In this document: piece by piece, positions 43,439 through 52,857 of the stretch
How the letters are laid out: the number at the start of each line of letters is the position of its first letter
Numbering within the stretch: the first letter of the stretch is position 1
Source of the DNA: Candidatus Eiseniibacteriota bacterium
Lineage (GTDB): Bacteria; Eisenbacteria; RBG-16-71-46
Direction: 5' to 3'
Assembly (NCBI GenBank): GCA_041483195.1
Contig: JBGPFC010000017.1
Coordinates: 1-64,000, forward strand
DNA: 64,000 nucleotides
Notes under the pieces: generated by a model
Database searches by the model: none
Seen by the model: the letters and a program-made list of their open reading frames with translations, nothing else
What the model was told of the DNA's origin: nothing
Position numbers and translations under genes: made by a program

Positions 43439-44353
43439 TCAGGGCTGGGGCGTCGCGATGCTGGCCGCGAGCGTGCGCTGGACGAGACGCGTCACGTCCG
43501 CGAAACGAGTCGCGTTGGTCGGGGCCCCGAGCACGACCGCGATCATGTCGCGGCCTTCGGTGTGCACCCAGGTGGCCAGACAGTAGCCGGCCTCGCTGAT
43601 GAAGCCGGTCTTGCCGCCCATGATCTCGTAACGGCCGTACAGCATGCGATTCGTGTTCGCGATCTGATGCGGCCGCGTCGCGCTGCGAAACGCGTAGGAC
43701 CGCGTGGTGCTGATCGGCTGGATCACCGGGTTGTTCGCGGCCACGCGGAGCAGGCGTGCCACGTCGGCGGCGGTCGAGACGTTGCGTTCGTCGAGACCCG
43801 TGAACTCGACGTAGCGGGTATGCGTGAGCCCGAGCTCGAGCGCCTTCTGATTCATGCGCGCCAGGTAATTCTCGGGCGAGAGCCCCGATTCTCGGGCGAG
43901 CACCCGGGTGGCCACGTTGTCGGAACACATGAGGCTCATGTGCAGCAGGTCGCCGAGCGCGACCCGCTCGCGATTGCGCAGCTGGGAGTGGCCCGCCCCG
44001 TAGAGCTCCGTGCGCGTGACCTCGGCCATCCGATCGAGCTCGGGGCTCTGCTCGAGGAACACGAGCGCGGTCATGAGCTTCGTGAGGCTCGCGATCGGCA
44101 CCGAGAGGCCCGAGTTCTTTTCGTACAGAACTTCGTCGGTCGCGGGGTCGAGCACGATCGCGTTGCGGGCGTAGCATCCGCCGGGAGGTGCGCGCCGCGC
44201 CCGCCGGCCCAGGTGACGGCGGTGTCCCGCCTGGCCAACCGAAGCCGTGTAGGTCTGAGTCGTCGAGACGGAAGCGGCGGCCGTCATGGCCGGGCACGCG
44301 ATCAGGGCCAACAACAGCGCGGCCCCGACGCGTCGTACGGGGTGAAGCGACAT
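43439..44353 (-). CDS. pbpG: D-alanyl-D-alanine endo/carboxypeptidase (S11, PBP7-like)
   Basis: ASLTK (SxxK), SDN, KTGFISEAGYC. Confidence 0.85.
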   Translation of the reverse strand: MSLHPVRRVGAALLLALIACPAMTAAASVSTTQTYTASVGQAGHRRHLGRRARRAPPGGCYARNAIVLDPATDEVLYEKNSGLSVPIASLTKLMTALVFLEQSPELDRMAEVTRTELYGAGHSQLRNRERVALGDLLHMSLMCSDNVATRVLARESGLSPENYLARMNQKALELGLTHTRYVEFTGLDERNVSTAADVARLLRVAANNPVIQPISTTRSYAFRSATRPHQIANTNRMLYGRYEIMGGKTGFISEAGYCLATWVHTEGRDMIAVVLGAPTNATRFADVTRLVQRTLAASIATPQP

Positions 44354-44496
44354 GATCCCTCCAGAGCGCCCTCGTCGCGAGGGCTCGGGGCCGGTACCCT
44401 CCATGGTATCGGTATCTGCGAGGAAATCACTTTAGCGGCGTCTGCCGCGAGCCGTCAACGAAAACCCTGCCCACCCGCGGCTGGGTGGGATGCCCC

Positions 44497-44883
44497 TCAG
44501 TGGATCAGGGTGGAACGCAGGTGCGGATAGACGGGCTGGCGGACCGCGCCGCGCTGCCAGTCCCCGAGGCGGCAGAAGCCATCGACGCTCAGGTCCTCGA
44601 CTTCTTCGGAGAACGCGTCGAGCCTTCCCTCGTGCAACGCCACCACCATGGTCTCGCCGCGAGCACGATTGAGGATCCTCACGATCTCGGGATTGAGGCA
44701 GGGCCCATACACCAGGTCGACGAGCACGAGGCCCGGCAGCGAGCGCAGCAGGCGCAATGCCTCGCGAGGTCTTGCAGCGATCCGCACGCTGGTCCCGCGA
44801 CCGCGGAGCGCGTTCATGTGTGCGGCATGCAGGCTGGGTGCTGCGCTGAGCAGCAGAACTTCACATGATCGAGGGGGGTTCAT
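44497..44883 (-). CDS. Degenerate receiver-like protein
   Basis: EVLLL...EALRLL...LVLVDL...VVAL...DGF pattern; ATGA overlap with upstream gene. Confidence 0.55.
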   Translation of the reverse strand: MNPPRSCEVLLLSAAPSLHAAHMNALRGRGTSVRIAARPREALRLLRSLPGLVLVDLVYGPCLNPEIVRILNRARGETMVVALHEGRLDAFSEEVEDLSVDGFCRLGDWQRGAVRQPVYPHLRSTLIH

Positions 44884-45428
44884 GAGAGAGATCCTCGTGG
44901 GCTGGGATCCAGGCCGAGGTCGACCCGGATCTTGTCCAGGCTGTCGTACAGGGATGGAAGGAATCGCCCCGCCGAAACCTCCGTGTCGAGGTCGAGGTTG
45001 CTTCCCACCGCGAGCCGACCCGCCCATGCCGAAGCCTCGTCGGCATCCCCAGCTGGGGCGAGCCGTCTCAGAAAACGGAGCAGCAGGCGCTGTGAATCCA
45101 GCGACAGCCGCTCCACGAAATCGATCAGCAACGTGCCGCCGTCCGTCGCACGCAGCAGGCTCCGGCCGGGCTCGGGGTCCGCGTTCGACAGCCAGCCCCG
45201 GAGCCCGGCCTGCACCGAAGCTTCGTCATGATCCGCGCGTACCGCGACGAACGCTCCGTAGCGCACCGGGCTCTCGCGATGGAATGCGATCGCGACCTCG
45301 GCCCGCTCGGAAGGCGTTCCCCGCAGCAACAGCAGGTGAATGAGGCTATGCCGGTGCATGCGGATGAGCTCGGCGGCCCGCGGCGCCGCCCTTCCGGGGA
45401 ACAGATTCTGTTCGAGTGCGCGAGGCAT
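44880..45428 (-). CDS. Stand-alone degenerate sigma54-interaction AAA+ fragment
   Basis: AFVAV, ATDGGTLLIDFVERLSLDSQRLLLRFL, GRFLPSLYDSL resemble bEBP C-regions; no GKE, no GAFTGA, no HTH. Confidence 0.75.
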   Translation of the reverse strand: MPRALEQNLFPGRAAPRAAELIRMHRHSLIHLLLLRGTPSERAEVAIAFHRESPVRYGAFVAVRADHDEASVQAGLRGWLSNADPEPGRSLLRATDGGTLLIDFVERLSLDSQRLLLRFLRRLAPAGDADEASAWAGRLAVGSNLDLDTEVSAGRFLPSLYDSLDKIRVDLGLDPSPRGSLS

Positions 45429-45434
45429 CGCCCG

Positions 45435-45746
45435 TCAGATCTTCGGTCGCCGCGCAGTCGCGGTGCTGACCGGGGTCGTGGCCCGGATCACGCGCGCCGC
45501 GGACTGACGGGGAGCGAAGCGGGCGCGCAGGTAGTCGCGGATCAGCGCGGCCTGGTATTCGAGCAGGGCGGTCGGCGCGAGCGTCGGGGTTGCCGCACCC
45601 TCCGAAGCGCCGCTCATGAGGGCGCTCGTGCCTCCGGTCGGGACGACGCCCGATCCCTGAGCGCTGGCGGGTCCGGCGAGAAGGCTGAGAGCGCAGGAAA
45701 GAATCGCGGCCAGGGCGATCGCAGCCAGCAAACGGGCGGCACGCAT
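45435..45746 (-). CDS. Small secreted hypothetical protein
   Basis: RBS AAGGAGG; signal peptide ending ASA. Confidence 0.65.
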   Translation of the reverse strand: MRAARLLAAIALAAILSCALSLLAGPASAQGSGVVPTGGTSALMSGASEGAATPTLAPTALLEYQAALIRDYLRARFAPRQSAARVIRATTPVSTATARRPKI

Positions 45747-45800
45747 GAAACGCCTCCTTCGAAACAGTGGTGAAACGCGGGGGGACCGCGACGCCACTTG

Positions 45801-45815
45801 GCGAGGACCGTGCCA
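45801..45815 (-). promoter_or_regulatory. Putative sigma54 -24/-12 promoter
   Basis: TGGCAC-GGTCC-TCGC, 54 nt upstream of 45746. Confidence 0.6.
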
Positions 45816-45873
45816 GCTGCCGTCCATCGATGATCCGTGCTCGCATCGTGCTTCCCGACAGAGACTTAGTGCG

Positions 45874-46004
45874 CTTCCGATCGGAAGAAGTAGCACGTCG
45901 TCGCATGGAGTCAAATTCGCCGAAACCAGCGAAATGACGACATCGCCATTTATATAATCTGTTGTCTGTATTTTAGTTCAAGTTAATTTCAGCGATTTCG
46001 GCGA
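45874..46004. promoter_or_regulatory. Candidate enhancer region
   Basis: Palindrome CTTCCGATCGGAAG (45874-45887); inverted TCGCCGAAA-N5-GAAAT arms (45917-45935, 45986-46004) around an AT-rich tract. Confidence 0.45.
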
Positions 46005-49000
46005 GTCCGCCGTTTATGGCGAGTCGAATCGAGGGTGTACTTGCGGATGCGGTAACGAAGAGACTGCTCCGTGAGCCCCAGATGGCGGGCGGCGAGGCTC
46101 TGGTTGCCCGATGCGAGTTCGAGCGCTTCCGCGATCGCGCGGCGCTCGAGCTTCTCGACCAGCTCCTTGAGGGTGCCGCCGCGCGGGATCTGGTCCGGGC
46201 GTTCTTCGAGGTCGCGCGGCGGAGGCGTGGGATGCAGCGCATCGCCGGGCGTCATGGCCAGCACGCGCTCGATGTAGTTCTGCAGCTCGCGCACGTTCCC
46301 CGGCCAATCGCTCTGCATCAGAGCCGGGACGAATTCCCGGGTGAGCCGCGGCACGGGACGTTCCTGCTGGCCGGCGTAGATCCGAACGAAATGCGCCGCG
46401 AGCGCCGGGATGTCCGCCTTGCGCTCGCGGAGCGGAGGCACCTCGATCGGGATGACGTTCAGGCGGTAGAAGAGATCCTCGCGAAACGTGCCCCGCTCCA
46501 CCGACTGGCGCAGGTCGCGATTCGACGCCGCGATGATGCGCACGTCCACCGGGATGGGTTTTCCTCCACCCACCGGGGTGATCTCGCGATTGGCGATCGC
46601 CGAGAGCAGGGCGACCTGCTGCTTGAGCGGCATCTCGCCGACTTCGTCCAGGAAGAGCGTGCCCCCGTCCGCCTGGACGAATCGCCCGTCGCGCCCGCCC
46701 ACCTCGGTCGCGATGCGCGACAGGATTCCGAACAACTCGCTCTCGAGCAGCGTCTCGGGAATCGCCCCGCAGTTGACCGCGACGAACGGCTTGAGCCGCC
46801 GCTTGCCGCTGTGGTGCAGGACGCGGGCGATGAGCTCCTTGCCCGTGCCGTTCTCGCCGGTGAGCAGCACCGTGGCATTGACCCGCGCGGCGCGATCGAC
46901 CACGGCGAGCACGCGTTGCATGGCGGAGCTCGTCCCGATCAGATTTTCCGCACGGAAGCGCGAGCTCACCTCGCGGCGCAACGAGAGGTTTTCTCCGACC
47001 AGCTGCTCGTTCACGCGCAGCACTTCCTGGTGGCCGCGGCTGTTCTCGATGGCGACGGCCATGAGCTGGGCGAAGCCTTCGAGCAGGGCGCGGTCCGCGT
47101 CGCTGAAGACGTCGGGGCGGCGCGAGTCGTCGAGATAGACCGCCCCCACCACGCGTCCGCCGAGGTAGAGGGGGACGCAGAGGATGGACCGGAGACGCAT
47201 GTCCATCACGCTCTCCGAGCGGGCCTGCGGATCGGTCGGCGCGTCGGCGATCAGCAGGCTGCCCCCGCTCTCGGCCACGCGCTGCACGACCCTCCGGCTG
47301 TACCCGACCGCCGCGTTTCGGGTCTTCGCGTCCACCGCGCCGAAATCGGCCACCGGGGTGAGCTGCCCGGTCTCGGGGTCGGCCAGCAACAGCACGCCAC
47401 GCTCGGCGTCGAGCTGTTCGACGGCGAGCCTCATCGCGCGCCGCGTGAGCTCCCCGAAGTCGGACATCGAATTGAGCAGCCGGCTCACCGCCTCGATCAG
47501 GTCGCGCTCGCGTCCCGCCGACGGGACGCCCGCGGCGCCCCGGCGGAGCCATTCCACGGTGAGCGCGAGGGTGGCGGCTCGACCGCGCGAATCGCCGAGC
47601 CGCTCGAACGCGCCGGCCGCCACATCGAGCCAGCGCCCGACCGCGATGGTCGCCTCGCGGTCGGCCGCGAGCGCGAGCCGCGAGAAATCGAGCGCGGCGT
47701 GCGCGCGATCGGCCGGCGCGGGAAGGGCACCCAGCCGATCGAGCACGGCCCTGGCGCCCTCTTCGTTCTCCGAATTCCGCGCTCGCGCGAGCGCGAGCTC
47801 GGACCGCAGCTGGTCCACGGTCGCTGCGGCATATGGTGCGTCGTGTCCGGCGAGCCAGGATCGCGACTCCTCGACCCGCGCCTTCGCGAGGTCGATCGCG
47901 CCGGCGCGGAGCGCGGCACGGCCCGCGAGGGCCAGCAGGACCGTGCGTCCCACCGATCCGGAGGGCCGCGGGCTCGCGAGCGCGCCGTCCCAGAGTTCGC
48001 CAGCTTCCTTCCAGCGGCCGGCGGCGATCAGCGATCGGCCCAGCTCGATACGGCACCAATCGATCTCGTCGGGCCTCGACAGCTTCATGCCCAGCGCGAG
48101 CGCGCGCTGCGCGATGCGGGCCGCTCGCGAATAGCGGCCCGCGATCCGATGCGCCTGGGCCAGCGAGCGCATGGCGAACGGCGTCTGCTGCGGCAGGTAG
48201 ACCCGGCACATGCGCACCGCGGCCCGCGCCTGCGCGAGCGCGCCGGCTCGATCGCCCGTGAGCCCGTCGGCCTGCGCGAGATTCGCGATCGCGATCGCGG
48301 CGCCGTGCGGGCGTCCGTCCTCCAGCGCGAGCCGCGCCGCTTCCGCGACGGAGCGGCGCGCGTCCGGCCAGCGGCCGGCCTCGATCAGGATGACCGACCA
48401 GTTGAGCAGCAGCTCCTCGAGCGGCAGCCGCAACCCGTGCGCGCGCGCGCGCGCGATGGCATCGAGATAGAGACGCTCGGCCTCGGCGGCGCCCTGACGG
48501 GATTGCGCGATGACCGCGCACAATCCCGTGGCCCGCAGCTCTCCCGGGAGATCGCCCGCGCGCGCGAACGCCTCAACGGCCCGAGCGGCCGTCGCCGCAG
48601 CTTCCTCGGCGAGGGTATCTTCCGCACGCCCGCTGATCATCGCGCCGGCGAGCGTCTGCGCCGCGACCCCGATCGCCAGCTCGTCGGTCGCGGACTCGCC
48701 GAGGGCCAGCGCATTCCGCGCCAGCTCGAGCGCGCCGGGCCGGTCGCCATCGAACAAGAGCCGCGCGGCCTCGTTGCTGAGAATGCGCGAGCGCGAAGCT
48801 TCGGGGAGGGACGCCGCGAGCGCCGTGGCGGCGACCCGCGCGGCGTCCGCGAGCTTCCCCGCGCGCAGGCATGCGGTCGACAGCTGCACCCAGCGCGCGG
48901 GGCGGTGATCGGGCGCGGCATCCAGCGACAGGGCGCGCTCGATGTGCGGAATCGCCGAACCGTAGCGGCCGCGCGCCGCCCACTCGCGCGCGGCCCGCTC

Positions 49001-51100
49001 GTGCCACGTCGCGGCCGCGGCGTGTCCCTGCGATTCCGCGAGGGCCGCGGCGTCGGCGGCCAGCCGCGCGTCGGGCCGCGCCGCAAACGCCGCCGCCGCC
49101 GCTTCGAGCGCCGCGGCCGCATCGCCCGCGGCGCGCAGGTGAACGAAGCGCTCCTCATGCGAGAGCGGGCCGCTCTCGACCACGGCGCGGTGGAGCGCGC
49201 GCCGCGCATCGGCATCGAGCCGCTCGAGCAACGCGGGCCCGAGCGCGGGCGGCGTGAGCGCGACGTCGCCGTTCTCCTCGCGGCGCGCGAGGCCGGCGGT
49301 CACCAGCGTGGCGGCGGCGTCATCGCCGGCCGCCGGCGCGATCGCGCGCATGCGCTCTGCGGAGGCCGGATGGCCGAACGCCGCGATCGCATGCGCCGCC
49401 TCCCGCGCCGGAGTGGGCAGCGCCAGGAGGCGTTCGAGCACCGCGGCCTCGAAGCCTAAGGCCTTGGGCAGGGCATCGAGCCGCTCCGCAACCAGCAGGA
49501 GCCCGGCATCGCTGTCGCGCAGCGCGCCCCGCGCGGCGGCGGTGCGCAGCCGCTCGATGGCGAGCCCGGGGTGGCCGCCACTCTCGCGACGGAGGAACGC
49601 GAGCAGCGCATCCGGCGCCGGCTCGCCGAGCCGCGCGGCGACGAGGCGGGCCAGACCCTCGTCGTCGAGCGGGCCCAGCGTCATCGTCTCCGCGTAGCCC
49701 GCCTCGAGCAGCATGCGCACGTCGTCGGGAGGCACGGGGGATTCCGCGCGGCGCGCCCACACCCACAACATGCGCGCGGCATCCGGATGCACGATCAGGC
49801 GCCTGGCGAACGCGCGGGAGAGCGAGTCGAGGTGCCGCGTGTCGTCGAGCAGCATCAGCGGCGCGCCGCGCCGTGCCGCCGCGGCGCGACTCCAGCGGGC
49901 CGCGGCGTCGACCAGCGCGGAGAGCTCGTGTTCATCCAGCCCGACCGGATCCCCCGCGAGCGCCGCGCGGGTGCGTGGCGCCAGCTCGATCGCGAGGCTC
50001 GGATCGGCGCCGGCCTCTGCGGCGAGGCGGCGTGCGATGCGCAGCGCGACGTCGCCCCGGCGCTCGGCTCCGGCGCACGACAGCGAAACGACGCTGACCC
50101 CGGAGAGCGCGGCGCGCCCCGCGAGCTCCGAGAGCAGCGCGGACTTGCCGACGCCCGCCTCGCCGGTGAGCCAGACGAGGTGGGAGCGCGACGTGAGCGA
50201 TCCGCGGCGCGCCTCGATCCTCGCGAATTCCCGCTCGCGCCCCGCGACCACCAACGCTTCCATGCGCGCTTCGAGCGGCCGCCGGGCCGCGGGGTGGATT
50301 CTCTCGAGCTCGCGCCGCACCTCGCGCGCATCGACCGGTCGTTCGGCGGGCGAGGGCGCGAGCAGCCGCAGCACCAGGCGTGCGAGCGCGGGCGGAGCAC
50401 CGGATTCCTCGAGCGGACGGGTGGACGGCGGCCCCGCCTGCTGACGCCTCAGGATCGCCGATGGCCGATCGCCTTCGAAGGGCGGGGAGCCCGCGATCAA
50501 AGCATAGAGCGTCGCGCCCAGACCGTAGAGGTCCGACGCCGCGCCGGGCGCCTCGCCGCGGATCACCTCGGGCGCGGCGAATCCCGGCGTCCCGCGATGT
50601 CCGGCGCCGCGGGCGTCCCGCAGCCCCGCGAGCCCGAAATCGAGCAGGCGCACGGCGGCCGGAAGCGCGCCGGCGGCCGCCGCGTGCACCACCAGCAGGT
50701 TCGAAGGCTTGAGATCCCCGTGCACGACGCCCGCCGCGTGCAGCGCCTCGAGACCGGACGCGACCTCGGCCGCGACGAAGCAGAGCGCGGCCCAGTCGCC
50801 GCGGGTGAGCGCCCGATCGGGCGGCACGCCCGGCACGAACTCCATCGTGTAGTAGGGCGAGCCGTCGAAGTCGAATCCGAGCTCGTGCACAGCGATGATC
50901 GTCGGATGCCGCACGCGGGTGAGCGCCTCGAACTCGTGGCGCATGAGCTCGGGCGTCGCGAGCGGGGTCCGCCGTCCCAGCCGCTTGAGCGCGCACTCCG
51001 CGCCGGTCGTCTGATCGAGCGCGAGGAACACCTCGCCCATGCCACCGCGTCCCAGCGGCTTGAGGAGGAGGTAACGGCCGGCGACGCGCTCCCGCATCAT
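45989..51100 (-). CDS. Ser/Thr kinase - P-loop ATPase - TPR - GAF - sigma54 activator - Fis HTH fusion
   Basis: GRGGMG, HGDLKPSN, DFG, APE; GEAGVGKS; SILCVPL; GENGTGKE, FLDEVGEM, FREDLFYRLNV, WPGNVREL; GNQSLAARHLG; ATGA overlap with DUF885 stop. Confidence 0.92.
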   Translation of the reverse strand: MMRERVAGRYLLLKPLGRGGMGEVFLALDQTTGAECALKRLGRRTPLATPELMRHEFEALTRVRHPTIIAVHELGFDFDGSPYYTMEFVPGVPPDRALTRGDWAALCFVAAEVASGLEALHAAGVVHGDLKPSNLLVVHAAAAGALPAAVRLLDFGLAGLRDARGAGHRGTPGFAAPEVIRGEAPGAASDLYGLGATLYALIAGSPPFEGDRPSAILRRQQAGPPSTRPLEESGAPPALARLVLRLLAPSPAERPVDAREVRRELERIHPAARRPLEARMEALVVAGREREFARIEARRGSLTSRSHLVWLTGEAGVGKSALLSELAGRAALSGVSVVSLSCAGAERRGDVALRIARRLAAEAGADPSLAIELAPRTRAALAGDPVGLDEHELSALVDAAARWSRAAAARRGAPLMLLDDTRHLDSLSRAFARRLIVHPDAARMLWVWARRAESPVPPDDVRMLLEAGYAETMTLGPLDDEGLARLVAARLGEPAPDALLAFLRRESGGHPGLAIERLRTAAARGALRDSDAGLLLVAERLDALPKALGFEAAVLERLLALPTPAREAAHAIAAFGHPASAERMRAIAPAAGDDAAATLVTAGLARREENGDVALTPPALGPALLERLDADARRALHRAVVESGPLSHEERFVHLRAAGDAAAALEAAAAAFAARPDARLAADAAALAESQGHAAAATWHERAAREWAARGRYGSAIPHIERALSLDAAPDHRPARWVQLSTACLRAGKLADAARVAATALAASLPEASRSRILSNEAARLLFDGDRPGALELARNALALGESATDELAIGVAAQTLAGAMISGRAEDTLAEEAAATAARAVEAFARAGDLPGELRATGLCAVIAQSRQGAAEAERLYLDAIARARAHGLRLPLEELLLNWSVILIEAGRWPDARRSVAEAARLALEDGRPHGAAIAIANLAQADGLTGDRAGALAQARAAVRMCRVYLPQQTPFAMRSLAQAHRIAGRYSRAARIAQRALALGMKLSRPDEIDWCRIELGRSLIAAGRWKEAGELWDGALASPRPSGSVGRTVLLALAGRAALRAGAIDLAKARVEESRSWLAGHDAPYAAATVDQLRSELALARARNSENEEGARAVLDRLGALPAPADRAHAALDFSRLALAADREATIAVGRWLDVAAGAFERLGDSRGRAATLALTVEWLRRGAAGVPSAGRERDLIEAVSRLLNSMSDFGELTRRAMRLAVEQLDAERGVLLLADPETGQLTPVADFGAVDAKTRNAAVGYSRRVVQRVAESGGSLLIADAPTDPQARSESVMDMRLRSILCVPLYLGGRVVGAVYLDDSRRPDVFSDADRALLEGFAQLMAVAIENSRGHQEVLRVNEQLVGENLSLRREVSSRFRAENLIGTSSAMQRVLAVVDRAARVNATVLLTGENGTGKELIARVLHHSGKRRLKPFVAVNCGAIPETLLESELFGILSRIATEVGGRDGRFVQADGGTLFLDEVGEMPLKQQVALLSAIANREITPVGGGKPIPVDVRIIAASNRDLRQSVERGTFREDLFYRLNVIPIEVPPLRERKADIPALAAHFVRIYAGQQERPVPRLTREFVPALMQSDWPGNVRELQNYIERVLAMTPGDALHPTPPPRDLEERPDQIPRGGTLKELVEKLERRAIAEALELASGNQSLAARHLGLTEQSLRYRIRKYTLDSTRHKRRTRRNR

Positions 51101-52857
51101 TTCGCTCCCGCTCGCGATCCGTTCCTGCGGACCAGCTGCCGGAGCACGCCCTCGCGGGCCAGCGGAAGCGGCACGCCTCCCTGTCGCAGCAGCGCGTCGT
51201 GAAACGCGCGCAGATCGAACCGATCCCCCAGCGCGCGGCGCGCCTCCTCGCGCAGCGCGAGGATCCGCCACTTGCCGAGCGTGTACACCAGGTAGGTCGG
51301 ATCGAGCGCGCCGCGCCGCGCCTCGCGGGCCGCGTTCACCGGGGCGAGATAGCAGCGTTCTTCGAACAGCCGCTCCGCCTGTTCCAGGGTCATGCCCTGC
51401 GTGTGCAGCGAGATGCCGACGATCAGTCGCCCGATGCGGCTCAGGGCGAGCGCGAGCTGGGCCAGCTCGATGCGGGGATCGCCGCGGCCGAAGCCCTCCT
51501 CCACCATCATCTGCTCGCAGTAGTGGGCCCAGCCTTCGGAGTTGCTCGCGCAGCGCAATGCCTGCCGCACGCGCGAGGGCACCCGCTGCAGTTCGAGGAA
51601 TTGGGCGTAGTGACCGGGCAGCGCCTCGTGCACGGTCACGAGCGCGGCCGCGCTGCGATTGAAGAACGCGAGGTGGTCGCGCCGCTGCCGCTCGGTCCAT
51701 TGCGGTTCCGGTGGGGTGACGTTGAACCAGGCGCGGGTCGCGCGTCGCTCCCACACGCCCGGGGCATCCATCGACGCGAATGAGAGGCTCCGCTGAAACG
51801 GCGGGGTCTCGCGCACCACCAGGTCTTCGCGCGCCGGCAGGGTGAGCACACGGTGGGCGCCGAGGAACGCGCGAATGCTGTCGAGCCCGGCCGCGACGAA
51901 CGGCACCAACCCCGAGTCGGACGGCGCGTCGACCTCGAGCGATTCGAGCGCGGCGGCCACGCCCAGGCCGGGCGCGATGCGATCGGCGACCCGCTCCATC
52001 TGCGCGCGCGTCGTGTCGAGCGCCGCCATGCCCTGCGCGAGCAGGGACTCGACCGGCGCCGTCTCCATCTCGTCGGCCGCGAGTTTGCGCTGATAGAGGT
52101 CGCGGCCCAGCGCGAAGCCGCCGGTCGCGTGGGGGAGGACGTCCTCGCGCAGCTGCTGCACGAATCGTTCGACCGCGAGCACCGCCGCCGAATCCGCCTC
52201 GGCGAGATCGGCCTGCACGCGCGGTTCGCGGCAGCCGCCGCTCAGCGCGGGGATCCCGCGGCGGTAGTAGTCGAGCACCCCCTGGAATTGGGCGATCGCG
52301 ACCTCGACGTAGAGCCGCGGCGGATCGCGAAGGTTCACGCGCGCCGCGCGAAGCACCTCCGGCACCAGGCGCAGGCGACGGGTCGCGAGCAACGCGCGTT
52401 CGCACGGCGGCGCGATGTCGCGCTCGAGCAGGGACTGGATCGAGCCCGCCACCAGGTCGAGGTACGCGTTCGGATTGCGCTCGAACGACCGGACTTCCGC
52501 GAGCTCGATCCGCTCGCGTTCGATGCGGGCGGAGAGCAGGTCGTACTCCTGAGCGCGCTCGAACGAGAGCGCATCGCGCGGGATCGCGTCCAGCGAGGCG
52601 CGCATGCCGGCCAGCCAGTCGAGATCGGACGCGACCGAGGCCGCGGTGATCGGCTCCAGCCGGCCGTCCCAGGCGTGGATCCCGAGCCGGGTCGCGAGCT
52701 GCGGACGGCGTGCGAGCCAGCCGTCGAGAAACGCGTCCGCGACCCGCAGCAGGCGCGCGTCAGAAGACTGGGCCACGGCGGCGCCCGCGAGCCAGAGCCC
52801 GAGAAACGCGGCGATCAGCAGACGGCGCAGAACGACTTTCATCATGTCCTGGCTCAC
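51097..52857 (-). CDS. DUF885-family secreted protein
   Basis: HEALPGHYAQ, EGWAHYCE, YTLGK, FDLRAFHD. Confidence 0.9.
   Translation of the reverse strand: MSQDMMKVVLRRLLIAAFLGLWLAGAAVAQSSDARLLRVADAFLDGWLARRPQLATRLGIHAWDGRLEPITAASVASDLDWLAGMRASLDAIPRDALSFERAQEYDLLSARIERERIELAEVRSFERNPNAYLDLVAGSIQSLLERDIAPPCERALLATRRLRLVPEVLRAARVNLRDPPRLYVEVAIAQFQGVLDYYRRGIPALSGGCREPRVQADLAEADSAAVLAVERFVQQLREDVLPHATGGFALGRDLYQRKLAADEMETAPVESLLAQGMAALDTTRAQMERVADRIAPGLGVAAALESLEVDAPSDSGLVPFVAAGLDSIRAFLGAHRVLTLPAREDLVVRETPPFQRSLSFASMDAPGVWERRATRAWFNVTPPEPQWTERQRRDHLAFFNRSAAALVTVHEALPGHYAQFLELQRVPSRVRQALRCASNSEGWAHYCEQMMVEEGFGRGDPRIELAQLALALSRIGRLIVGISLHTQGMTLEQAERLFEERCYLAPVNAAREARRGALDPTYLVYTLGKWRILALREEARRALGDRFDLRAFHDALLRQGGVPLPLAREGVLRQLVRRNGSRAGAK

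Follow-up and report, generated by a model that had tools for sequence, protein, structure and literature searches.

The window analyzed here is a stretch of 64,000 nucleotides (nt) from Candidatus Eiseniibacteriota bacterium (GenBank assembly GCA_041483195.1, contig JBGPFC010000017.1, positions 1 to 64,000 of the forward strand), and all positions given without a locus label are those of this window. It holds the gene of a giant regulator that belongs with the sigma-54 enhancer-binding proteins (EBPs) and, next to it, three small genes behind a -24/-12 promoter element. An earlier reading of the sequence alone (the sequence-only reading) had proposed that these form a self-contained circuit, in which the giant induces a split, catalytically dead NtrC-like pair and a secreted peptide signal. 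The features of the locus, all on the minus strand, are as follows.

45989..51100, minus strand: giant regulator gene, assigned by Pfam and NCBIfam domains.
46007..46022, minus strand: palindrome 1, TCGCCATAAACGGCGG, a candidate enhancer site (upstream activating sequence) within the last codons of the giant gene.
45989..46004, minus strand: palindrome 2, TCGCCGAAATCGCTGA, a candidate enhancer site that overlaps the stop codon of the giant gene.
45917..45932, minus strand: palindrome 3, TCGCTGGTTTCGGCGA, a candidate enhancer site ~111 base pairs (bp) upstream of the -24 GG.
45801..45815, minus strand: -24/-12 sigma-54-type promoter, TGGCAC-N5-TCGC, from the sequence element and its positional conservation.
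45435..45746, minus strand: gene for a predicted exported protein of 103 residues, with a signal-like N-terminus and no family match.
44880..45428, minus strand: gene for a dead EBP AAA+ alpha/beta subdomain of 182 residues, from Pfam, profile, and AlphaFold/Foldseek comparisons.
44497..44883, minus strand: gene for a pseudo-receiver of 128 residues, from profile and AlphaFold/Foldseek comparisons.
43439..44404, minus strand: gene for a Peptidase_S11 D-Ala-D-Ala carboxypeptidase-like protein, a neighbor and probably a separate unit.

The features are present at the coordinates that the sequence-only reading gave. It had described the promoter as following the giant gene, which is true when the minus strand is read and not on forward coordinates (45989 vs. 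45801–45815). Its enhancer-like repeats are borne out as three 16-bp palindromes of the form TCGCC-N6-GGCGA, and its -24/-12 element lies at exactly the position reported, 45815–45801. The stop codon of the 103-residue gene and the start of the 182-residue open reading frame (ORF) are separated by 6 nt, and the ATG of the 128-residue ORF overlaps the stop of the 182-residue gene by 4 nt (ATGA). The GC fractions at the three codon positions are of the coding type for a genome with 70% GC (0.75/0.51/0.77 in the 182-residue gene and 0.72/0.48/0.78 in the 128-residue gene), with third-position values somewhat below the 0.87–0.89 of the neighboring genes. No Rfam family was found across positions 44300–46100.

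The giant protein, 1703 residues long, is read from the ATG at 51100 (MMRERVAGRYLLLKPLGRGGMGEV...) to 45989; the long ORF in the same frame begins at 52405. Pfam assigns to it a Pkinase domain (residues 12–255, 120 bits, PF00069), AAA_16 (285–447), tetratricopeptide repeats (TPR, ~897–1007), GAF (1214–1352), Sigma54_activat (1387–1553, PF00158, 207 bits), AAA_lid_14 (73.7 bits), and HTH_8 (1648–1688). The architecture is that of a cytoplasmic sensor and regulator composed of a Hanks-type Ser/Thr kinase, a STAND/AAA_16 NTPase, TPR, GAF, a sigma-54 AAA+ domain with its lid, and a Fis-type helix-turn-helix (HTH). The top NCBIfam models are NifA, NorR, and NtrC, all far under their equivalog cut-offs (337 bits for NifA against a cut-off of 528.85), and the best sequence match in the PDB is a NifA structure. 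Sixteen orthologues retain the motifs of the kinase (G-loop, AxK, HGDLKPxN, DFG, and APE), so that the kinase, of the non-RD type (HGD), looks active from its sequence. In the motor, GENGTGKE (Walker A), GGTLFLDE (Walker B DE), FREDLFYRL (arginine finger), and the lid are strictly conserved in 18 orthologues. At least 120 close clusters of the giant exist, each ~1690–1700 residues long, and their source annotation is generic only: "sigma 54-interacting transcriptional regulator" or "Nif-specific regulatory protein." At one related locus (L019:2308-3386, minus strand), the AAA+ region of the giant gives two overlapping matches that lie in different frames, the result of either a frameshift or a misassembly in a fragmented genome. 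The genome of the window contains more very long EBP-containing frames, at C75 (1593 residues) and C22 (1093 residues), and these have canonical GAFTGA loops.

For a first set of related loci, 20 places were taken from 41 related genomes searched with the 182-residue protein, and the parts of each locus were mapped by tblastn. The 182-residue orthologues in those 41 genomes show 35%–51% identity in open frames of ~180–200 residues. In 17 of the 20 loci the giant gene lies directly upstream of the 182-residue homologue on the same strand; the other three (L022, L028, and L029) end at a contig end. A scan of contigs with the AAA+ part of the giant brought up mostly generic EBPs, with one of 80 loci belonging to the family: this public contig (L034) has the same gene order. 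Among 15 further places, two (L124 and L125) are ordinary borderline EBPs, and the remaining 13, in families f1, f17, and f5, are true family loci; the GAF-AAA+-HTH end of the giant lies 600–800 nt upstream in all 13, and the kinase is visible in the fetched stretches of 10. Including the window, the linkage therefore stands at 32 loci, with three unjudgeable and none against, in four families of the class. The conserved synteny of the core (giant, palindromes, promoter, exported protein, and 182-residue protein) holds in these 32 loci with none contradicting, and the small ORFs, as the sequence-only reading required, are conserved, intact, and tied to this type of giant in related genomes.

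Of 206 genomes of the phylum, 63 carry the 182-residue family by a profile search (E ≤ 1e-27), 61 of them with a single match, and only two of 65 family matches have an internal stop. By family the carriers are 52 of 88 genomes in f1, five of 10 in f3, four of five in f17, and one of one in f5, with none in all others; the f3 count, like the phylum tally and the 41-genome search, includes one unpublished genome (G026), without which f3 stands at four of nine and which bears on no further claim here. Seven of the 11 giant clusters that have an NCBI organism name are labeled Candidatus Eisenbacteria or Eiseniibacteriota, and the cassette's lineage is probably Candidatus Eisenbacteria. The parts that do not vary are the giant, the palindromes, the -24/-12 element, the small exported protein, and the dead, lid-less AAA+ subdomain. 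Within the operon, the invariant pair is the exported protein and the AAA+ alpha/beta subdomain of 170–200 residues. Judged by sequence comparison, the picture of a conserved, lineage-specific cassette is solid.

The promoter element, TGGCACGGTCCTCGC at 45815–45801, is the sole match to TGGCACG-N4-TYGC in the 64-kb window and predicts a transcript start near 45789. Such a lone match is not significant by itself (0.23 expected; at least one match in 21 of 100 shuffles), and it is the related loci that give it weight. With the strict pattern, a -24/-12 element occurs at the same distance from the end of the giant in eight of 18 loci; a weight matrix built from those eight ([TC]GGCA[CTG]-N5-T[CG]GC) has its top match at that place in the other 10, and a GG-N10-GC element stands there in all 18. 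Across 24 loci outside the matrix training, 16 score ≥9 bits in the expected 75 nt, while each of six control windows gives zero or one of 24 and 500 shuffles of the test give a mean of 0.16 and a maximum of two. When the whole 650-nt segment is considered, the best matrix match falls at the promoter place in 22 of these 24 loci. The distant families have TGGCACG-N4-TTGT or GGCAT-N5-TTGC. On these sequence patterns the operon is very probably sigma-54 dependent.

The three palindromes (46022–46007, 46004–45989, and 45932–45917) have their centers ~201, ~183, and ~111 bp upstream of the promoter GG, the centers of sites 1 and 2 being 18 bp apart; palindrome 3 is an exact match to TCGC-N8-GCGA. 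Every related locus carries 16–18-bp palindromes of the form TTCGC-N8-GCGAA upstream of the promoter. Typically, a tandem pair covers the final codons and the stop of the giant gene, and a third copy follows 40–73 nt past the stop, the latter being present in 16 of 30 other loci; the promoter comes ~110 bp later. The half-sites are identical within a locus and differ between loci: TCGCC in most, TCGTAG in L023, TCACCG in L025, TCGTCA in L016, and TGCGCA in L032. In most loci the recognition helix of the HTH reads (T/S)EQ(S/T)xRY(R/K)x(R/K)KY, and the most deviant helices among those compared are those of L025 (SDTGIRSRMKKH) and L023 (PEPTIRYRMRKH). This covariation of half-site with recognition helix, seen in few lineages, is suggestive of the giant binding these sites.

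Within its own genome, the giant locus is the sole place with a pair of sites (at most two mismatches each) within 150 bp. We found no second palindrome cluster in the genome, although this is a weak test: there are 307 matches with at most three mismatches, mostly in coding sequence, and no regulon can be defined from them. The short pattern alone is likewise meaningless, the window having 203 occurrences of TCGC-N8-GCGA with one mismatch where 190 are expected. At the 3′ end of the giant gene (45989–46030, minus strand), constraint on a DNA site and on protein coding overlap. In many orthologues the palindromes, by overlapping the end of the coding sequence, show up in the C-terminal tail of the giant as repeated R-x-N-R-R peptides. 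Between palindromes 2 and 3 lies an AT-rich stretch of ~44 nt (AATTAACTTGAACTAAAATACAGACAACAGATTATATAAATGG, 45945–45988, minus strand), AT-rich in the orthologues too, which may be a bend or a site of the integration host factor type.

The 182-residue protein matches Sigma54_activat (PF00158) with 35.5 bits against a cut-off of 20.2. Since the match runs from profile position 20 to 167 of 168, the protein comprises the alpha/beta subdomain only, lacking lid and HTH. A profile of 21 orthologues finds solved EBP AAA+ domains with E-values from 3e-20 to 1e-13 (ZraR best, 3.3e-20; also FleQ, NifA, DmpR, NtrX, VpsR, PspF, LuxO, and NtrC1). The AlphaFold model has a mean predicted local distance difference test (pLDDT) value of 87.4, and its best Foldseek match is FleQ (E = 3.2e-10, template modeling score [TM] 0.71), with DmpR, PspF, and NtrC1 also found. 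The catalytic residues are gone from this fold. The Walker A motif is GG-x4-R instead of GxxGxGK, without the lysine; the Glu after the Walker B Asp and the finger Arg of FRxDL are each present in one of 21 sequences; and the GAFTGA region is shortened and unconserved. There is no DNA-binding domain. In a library of 1.84 billion proteins, HMMER finds 122 representatives at E ≤ 1e-30, nearly all of 110–240 residues, and the long proteins among the matches are tandem or multidomain EBPs rather than family fusions. By these comparisons the 182-residue proteins are a new stand-alone protein family, one that remains defined even if the small proteins turn out to be ordinary accessories.

These features can be read as a dedicated sigma-54 operon that is driven by the adjacent giant and whose noncatalytic AAA+ product modulates assembly of the activator ring, a reading to which we would give an even chance. 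The first step appears likely: we take the giant to be the probable activator of the operon because of its position, the covariation of half-sites with the recognition helix, its intact motor, and an orthologue at locus L020 that has the same layout and the usual type of sigma-54-contacting loop. Dimers formed by the HTH of the giant would bind the palindromes, and its AAA+ ring would open the sigma-54 promoter complex. The 182-residue protein would neither bind nor hydrolyze ATP, contact sigma-54, or donate an arginine finger, and keeps the core that forms AAA+ interfaces. Most likely it would dock on activator protomers, either those of the giant or those of an adjacent NtrC-type partner, and tune ring assembly as feedback on its own circuit.

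In an AAA+ ring, the nucleotide site that one protomer provides (alpha/beta subdomain plus lid) is complete only with the alpha/beta subdomain and the arginine finger contributed by the following protomer. A protein that retains the core and lacks lid, finger, and nucleotide site could dock on an activator protomer without firing its site or recruiting another subunit. A cap or brake would then be the simplest mechanism, and because the 182-residue protein would be made under the activator, such a brake would be feedback. That the protein modulates an activator, in whichever direction, we judge to be slightly less probable than its opposite, and the narrower proposal of an inhibitory cap is tentative and on balance unlikely. 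A complex prediction for the AAA+ domain of the giant with the 182-residue family, run without controls, returned no answer (score 0.00).

Several observations weigh against this reading of the locus. The -12 half of the promoter is TCGC or TGGC rather than TTGC, and TGGCA[CT]-N5-TCGC is not enriched in the genome (25 seen, ~23 expected), while the TTGC version of the same element is enriched genome-wide (13 seen, ~3 expected). The 182-residue protein is no closer to the AAA+ domain of the giant (24%–31% identity) than to other EBPs, and within its own genome it matches other EBPs best. The ratio of nonsynonymous to synonymous divergence (dN/dS) of the small genes is 0.28–0.69, against 0.13–0.74 for the functional AAA+ domain of the giant in the same pairs, a comparison that is uninformative on selection because dS is saturated (0.5–0.7). 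A further, unexpected point is that the L1 loop of the giant lacks the Phe of GAFTGA, with NVAT[G/D] in most orthologues and RIATE (SRIATEV) in the window, so that the giant may not activate sigma-54 in the usual way and the statement that the activator induces the operon is less certain than the sequence-only reading assumed. As to strain variants, four DNA runs yielded short identical pieces and three differences in one low-depth contig, which carry no information on selection.

The loop lies at 46700–46760 (minus strand; giant residues ~1450–1470) and at the same place in loci L013–L034. The ELFGHEKGAFTGA of usual EBPs corresponds to ELFGILSRIATEV in the window and to ELFGILPNVATG/DV in the orthologues. 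In a profile alignment to NifA and ZraR, N-V-A-T-(G/D) falls beneath G-A-F-T-G with the final Ala deleted, so that an Ala stands in place of the Phe and the loop is short by one residue. The Phe-less loop is conserved across family f1. Among the orthologues, GAFTNA is kept only by that of L020, which is 54% identical and has an identical operon layout; L032 has GAASNV. A pattern search finds 11 EBP motors in the genome of the window, of which 10 carry G[AGS]FT[GD]A and the giant is the exception. The genome has a single rpoN, and region I of its sigma-54 is ordinary.

The conserved loop bears directly on whether the giant fires this promoter at all. It could instead be a sigma-54-independent binder of the palindromes, with another EBP acting at the promoter: a repressor, a roadblock at its own 3′ end, or a sigma-70-type activator like VpsR, Caulobacter NtrC, or TyrR, the last being an EBP-family protein without GAFTGA. 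At least 10 other EBPs with the canonical motif are encoded in the genome and could serve. In PspF, the Phe and Thr of GAFTGA contact region I of sigma-54, and a bulky replacement at any of the six positions abolished open-complex formation (PMC3467059); and VpsR (PMC6158489), PexR, and Caulobacter NtrC are described as proteins of the EBP kind that do without both the motif and sigma-54. However, promoter, palindromes, and giant gene occur together in 32 loci of four families, and the other motor elements (Walker A and B, arginine finger, and lid) are strictly conserved, although a mere DNA binder would not need them. The L020 orthologue combines GAFTNA with the same layout, and across the aligned loci we see no further conserved activator site between the palindromes and the promoter. 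We regard a giant that is not the activator of this promoter as quite improbable. A conserved Phe-less L1 loop beside a conserved -24/-12 promoter is a natural experiment on how far the GAFTGA contact is required.

Granting that the giant drives the operon, the sign of the effect of the 182-residue protein can also be argued the other way. It might be a positive partner like FleT, co-assembling with the giant to stabilize its rings or to redirect it to further promoters. In that system, FleQ drives the operon encoding FleT, and the FleQ–FleT complex then activates the next class of genes (PMC7277832); the 182-residue protein is likewise the invariant cytoplasmic product of its operon, with one copy in nearly all carrier genomes. 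Yet it has lost the lid and every catalytic and sigma-54-contacting element, so that its presence in a ring would cost at least two working ATP sites, and the weak search for palindromes gave no second cluster to which the giant could be redirected. A positive role in this form is in our view quite improbable.

The third gene of the operon is its variable part. For the 128-residue protein of the window, Pfam gives no match at E ≤ 1 (PF00072 included), but a profile of 13 sequences aligns over its full length with the receiver 2msw (E = 0.0015). The AlphaFold model (pLDDT 82.5) shows a CheY-like fold of the (beta-alpha)5 type, its five strands and four helices following the order of a receiver, with a disordered tail and the final helix missing. 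Its first two Foldseek matches are unrelated (a chain of a USP11 complex and a Dsk2 construct); from rank 3 on, the matches listed are almost wholly receivers (E ~5e-5 to 3e-4, TM 0.5–0.6), including inactive-state NtrC1, FrzS, RssB, Spo0F, and MtrA. When the residues of the phosphorylation pocket are placed by eye on the alignment and the model, the acceptor-position Asp alone remains (D56, invariant in 13 sequences); the acidic pair (here S-A), the Thr/Ser (strand 4 ends in ALH), and the Lys (strand 5 ends in DGFC) are lost. A C-terminal His (44497–44502, minus strand) is present in 11 of 13 pseudo-receiver orthologues, after a disordered tail that is otherwise unconserved.

The pseudo-receiver occurs in 14 loci (the window, 12 of the 20 in the first set, and L034) and in none of the 13 later ones. 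Its start overlaps the stop of the 182-residue gene in the window and in 10 of 12 relatives, an overlap that is also seen with histidine kinase partners. Soluble PAS/HisKA/HATPase kinases hold the third position in L025, L119, L121, L122, and L126. NtrC-type proteins with receiver, AAA+, and HTH hold it in three more loci: canonical in L029 (618-2075, minus strand), partly degenerate in receiver and Walker B in L030 (8428-9810, plus strand), and with a weak receiver match in L120 (1077-2417, minus strand). A PAS-receiver protein is found in L127 and a Crp-like protein in L031; in L118 a weak receiver precedes a true one, and ~10 loci have nothing recognizable. Most of these replacements, too, have overlapping stop and start codons. 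The split, dead NtrC-like pair of the sequence-only reading thus holds up in one half, the 182-residue protein having indeed no catalytic residues, and fails as a general description: the gene order is AAA+ and then receiver, and such a pair fits only the 14 loci with a pseudo-receiver. The regulators of L029, L030, and L120 hint at a decay series toward the 128-residue pseudo-receiver; an hhalign comparison of the pseudo-receiver profile with the L029 and L030 proteins gives probabilities of 0.5% and 9.7% and does not confirm descent.

With a third gene that is nearly always of two-component type and translationally coupled, the 182-residue protein might work with that neighbor and not with the giant, serving as scaffold or decoy for a two-component pathway whose only tie to the giant is to be switched on by it. 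Receiver domains are known to hold the AAA+ domains of EBPs in the off state. The full NtrC-type EBP that comes next in L029, L030, and L120 would offer a ring for the 182-residue protein to act on, and both small proteins have the inactive-state NtrC1 structure (1ny5) among their best fold matches. Against such a role, ~10 loci without a recognizable partner gene still keep the 182-residue gene, and the partners are too varied for one interface. We consider it a poor candidate, on a par with the two foregoing alternatives. Where activator-ring modulation is assumed instead, the coupled third gene would serve to connect the partner of the giant, the 182-residue protein, to further signals.

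A more skeptical account would make the small genes functionless, decaying remnants of an NtrC-type regulator, or the whole locus an anti-phage defense island built on kinase and STAND domains. Neither small protein retains catalytic residues, and their dN is three to four times that of the AAA+ domain of the giant in the same pairs. PADLOC matches the kinase domain (PD-T4-6 and mad6) and the AAA+-HTH part (RtcR models) and nothing in the 103- and 128-residue proteins. These matches are at the level of single domains only, the small genes match no protein of a defense system, and the synteny is stable across the class, unlike that of defense islands. Decay is hard to reconcile with ORFs of constant length that are intact in 63 genomes and so rarely interrupted by a stop, with conserved motif columns, and with coding-type GC at the codon positions. 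Both forms of this account are very improbable.

The first gene of the operon, the 103-residue ORF at 45746..45435, is preceded by GAAGGAGG. By eye and a simple pattern, its product has a hydrophobic, signal-like N-terminus with a predicted cleavage at ASA|Q, then PTGG and a basic C-terminus. We found no family for it in Pfam or NCBIfam, and the best score in the ESM Atlas, 0.85, provides no lead. By an automatic rule, an ATG-started ORF of at least 55 residues with a hydrophobic N-terminus begins 40–110 nt past the promoter in 30 of 31 loci; in L118 the exported-protein ORF begins with TTG. For families f1 and f3, 26 of 27 loci show AxA|Q at the end of the signal-like part, often followed by [PST][ST]GG, and the C-terminus is basic. 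In f17 and f5 (L114–L118), the small protein has a signal-like N-terminus, a Pro-rich middle with [DS]EPxP, and a second hydrophobic stretch at its extreme C-terminus (...GSTVVL). Conservation thus extends to the signal-like N-terminus with AxA|Q; the secreted peptide signal that had been proposed is a guess only. In the circuit outlined above, the exported protein would be the extracytoplasmic output.

Some of the loci carry additional genes in or near the operon. Between the exported-protein and 182-residue genes, L016 has genes for a 271-residue protein with a signal-like N-terminus and a 96-residue membrane-like protein, and L017 has an ORF of 316 residues. In L117 an O-antigen-ligase-like (Wzy_C) gene comes after the operon. 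The Peptidase_S11 gene adjoins the operon in 12 of the 20 first-set loci and in L034 and in none of the 13 later family loci; apart from loci of the pseudo-receiver type, it accompanies only two. A sigma-70-like promoter match of its own lies at 44458–44429 (one found, 0.2 expected). A scan between the 128-residue and Peptidase_S11 genes found no terminator, and the hairpin there is no better than in shuffles (z = -0.43). On the other side, a DUF885 gene (51097..52857, minus strand) has a stop codon that overlaps the ATG of the giant (ATGA, 51097–51100); it is a neighbor in six or seven close relatives only, and the giant may be co-transcribed with it.

Taken to its full extent, the circuit would comprise a 182-residue protein that founds a new class of pseudo-AAA+ subunit, a giant that is the first EBP with a Phe-less L1 loop to open sigma-54 promoters, and an exported protein that closes a feedback loop between cells or with the envelope. 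All three together are improbable. Were they true, one protomer without lid and finger would enter or cap the ring of the giant and set its ATPase output, making an autotuned sigma-54 switch. Sigma-54 activators are a textbook AAA+ machine, and we know of no description, and found none in open-access papers, of their regulation by a catalytically dead paralogue that the target operon of the activator itself encodes. The locus is a compact natural system, four proteins and 300 bp of DNA, in which control of this kind can be tested. The cassette also serves as a lineage marker and gives first clues to signaling in an uncultured phylum, and the giant joins eukaryote-type kinase signaling, a STAND switch, and sigma-54 in one polypeptide.

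In the open-access text of papers, we found no kinase/STAND/GAF/EBP giant together with a target operon that encodes a dead AAA+ subdomain, in agreement with the sequence-only reading, which knew of no described system with this layout. The literature does contain heteromeric EBPs, EBPs without GAFTGA, and inhibitors encoded in the regulon, and kinase–EBP fusions are reportedly noted in genome papers on myxobacteria. The C-terminal 500 residues of the giant resemble GAF-AAA+-HTH activators of the NifA/NorR type; unlike these, the giant adds an N-terminal 1200 residues of kinase, STAND, and TPR domains and has a noncanonical L1 loop.

Close in logic is the phage-shock system of E. coli, in which a product of the activator's operon, PspA, binds back to the AAA+ domain of PspF and inhibits it (cf. 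PMC3791423). PspA, however, is a coiled-coil protein of membrane stress rather than an AAA+ paralogue, and PspF has no sensory domains and a canonical GAFTGA. PspF–PspA is negative feedback in trans, whereas feedback at the locus of the giant is what we infer. In the Fla1 system of Rhodobacter (Cereibacter) sphaeroides, the operon of the master EBP FleQ encodes an EBP-family protein, FleT, that forms a hetero-complex with it, and FleT is described as an activator (PMC7277832). The 182-residue protein differs in lacking the Walker A lysine, Walker B glutamate, GAFTGA, finger, and lid, and in being accompanied by an exported protein and a variable two-component partner. HrpR and HrpS of Pseudomonas syringae form an obligate hetero-hexamer of co-evolved, paralogous EBPs that has a regulon-encoded inhibitor, HrpV (cf. 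PMC3105312); HrpR and HrpS are both complete and active as AAA+ proteins, and HrpV, unlike the 182-residue protein, has no relation to AAA+.

With VpsR, Caulobacter NtrC, and PexR, the giant shares a sigma-54-type AAA+ domain without the sigma-54-contacting motif. Those proteins and TyrR act at sigma-70-type promoters, whereas the presumed sites of the giant stand at enhancer distance from a conserved -24/-12 element. The 128-residue protein recalls the pseudo-receiver FrzS of Myxococcus, a receiver fold without the full pocket, whose structures 2i6f, 2gkg, and 2nt3 are among its best matches; compared with such pseudo-receivers, it stands alone, lacks the last helix, retains the acceptor Asp, and mostly has a C-terminal His. 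With a layout that is real and a working that we infer, the locus is an undescribed module that sits among the sigma-54 circuits whose activators have modulating partners.

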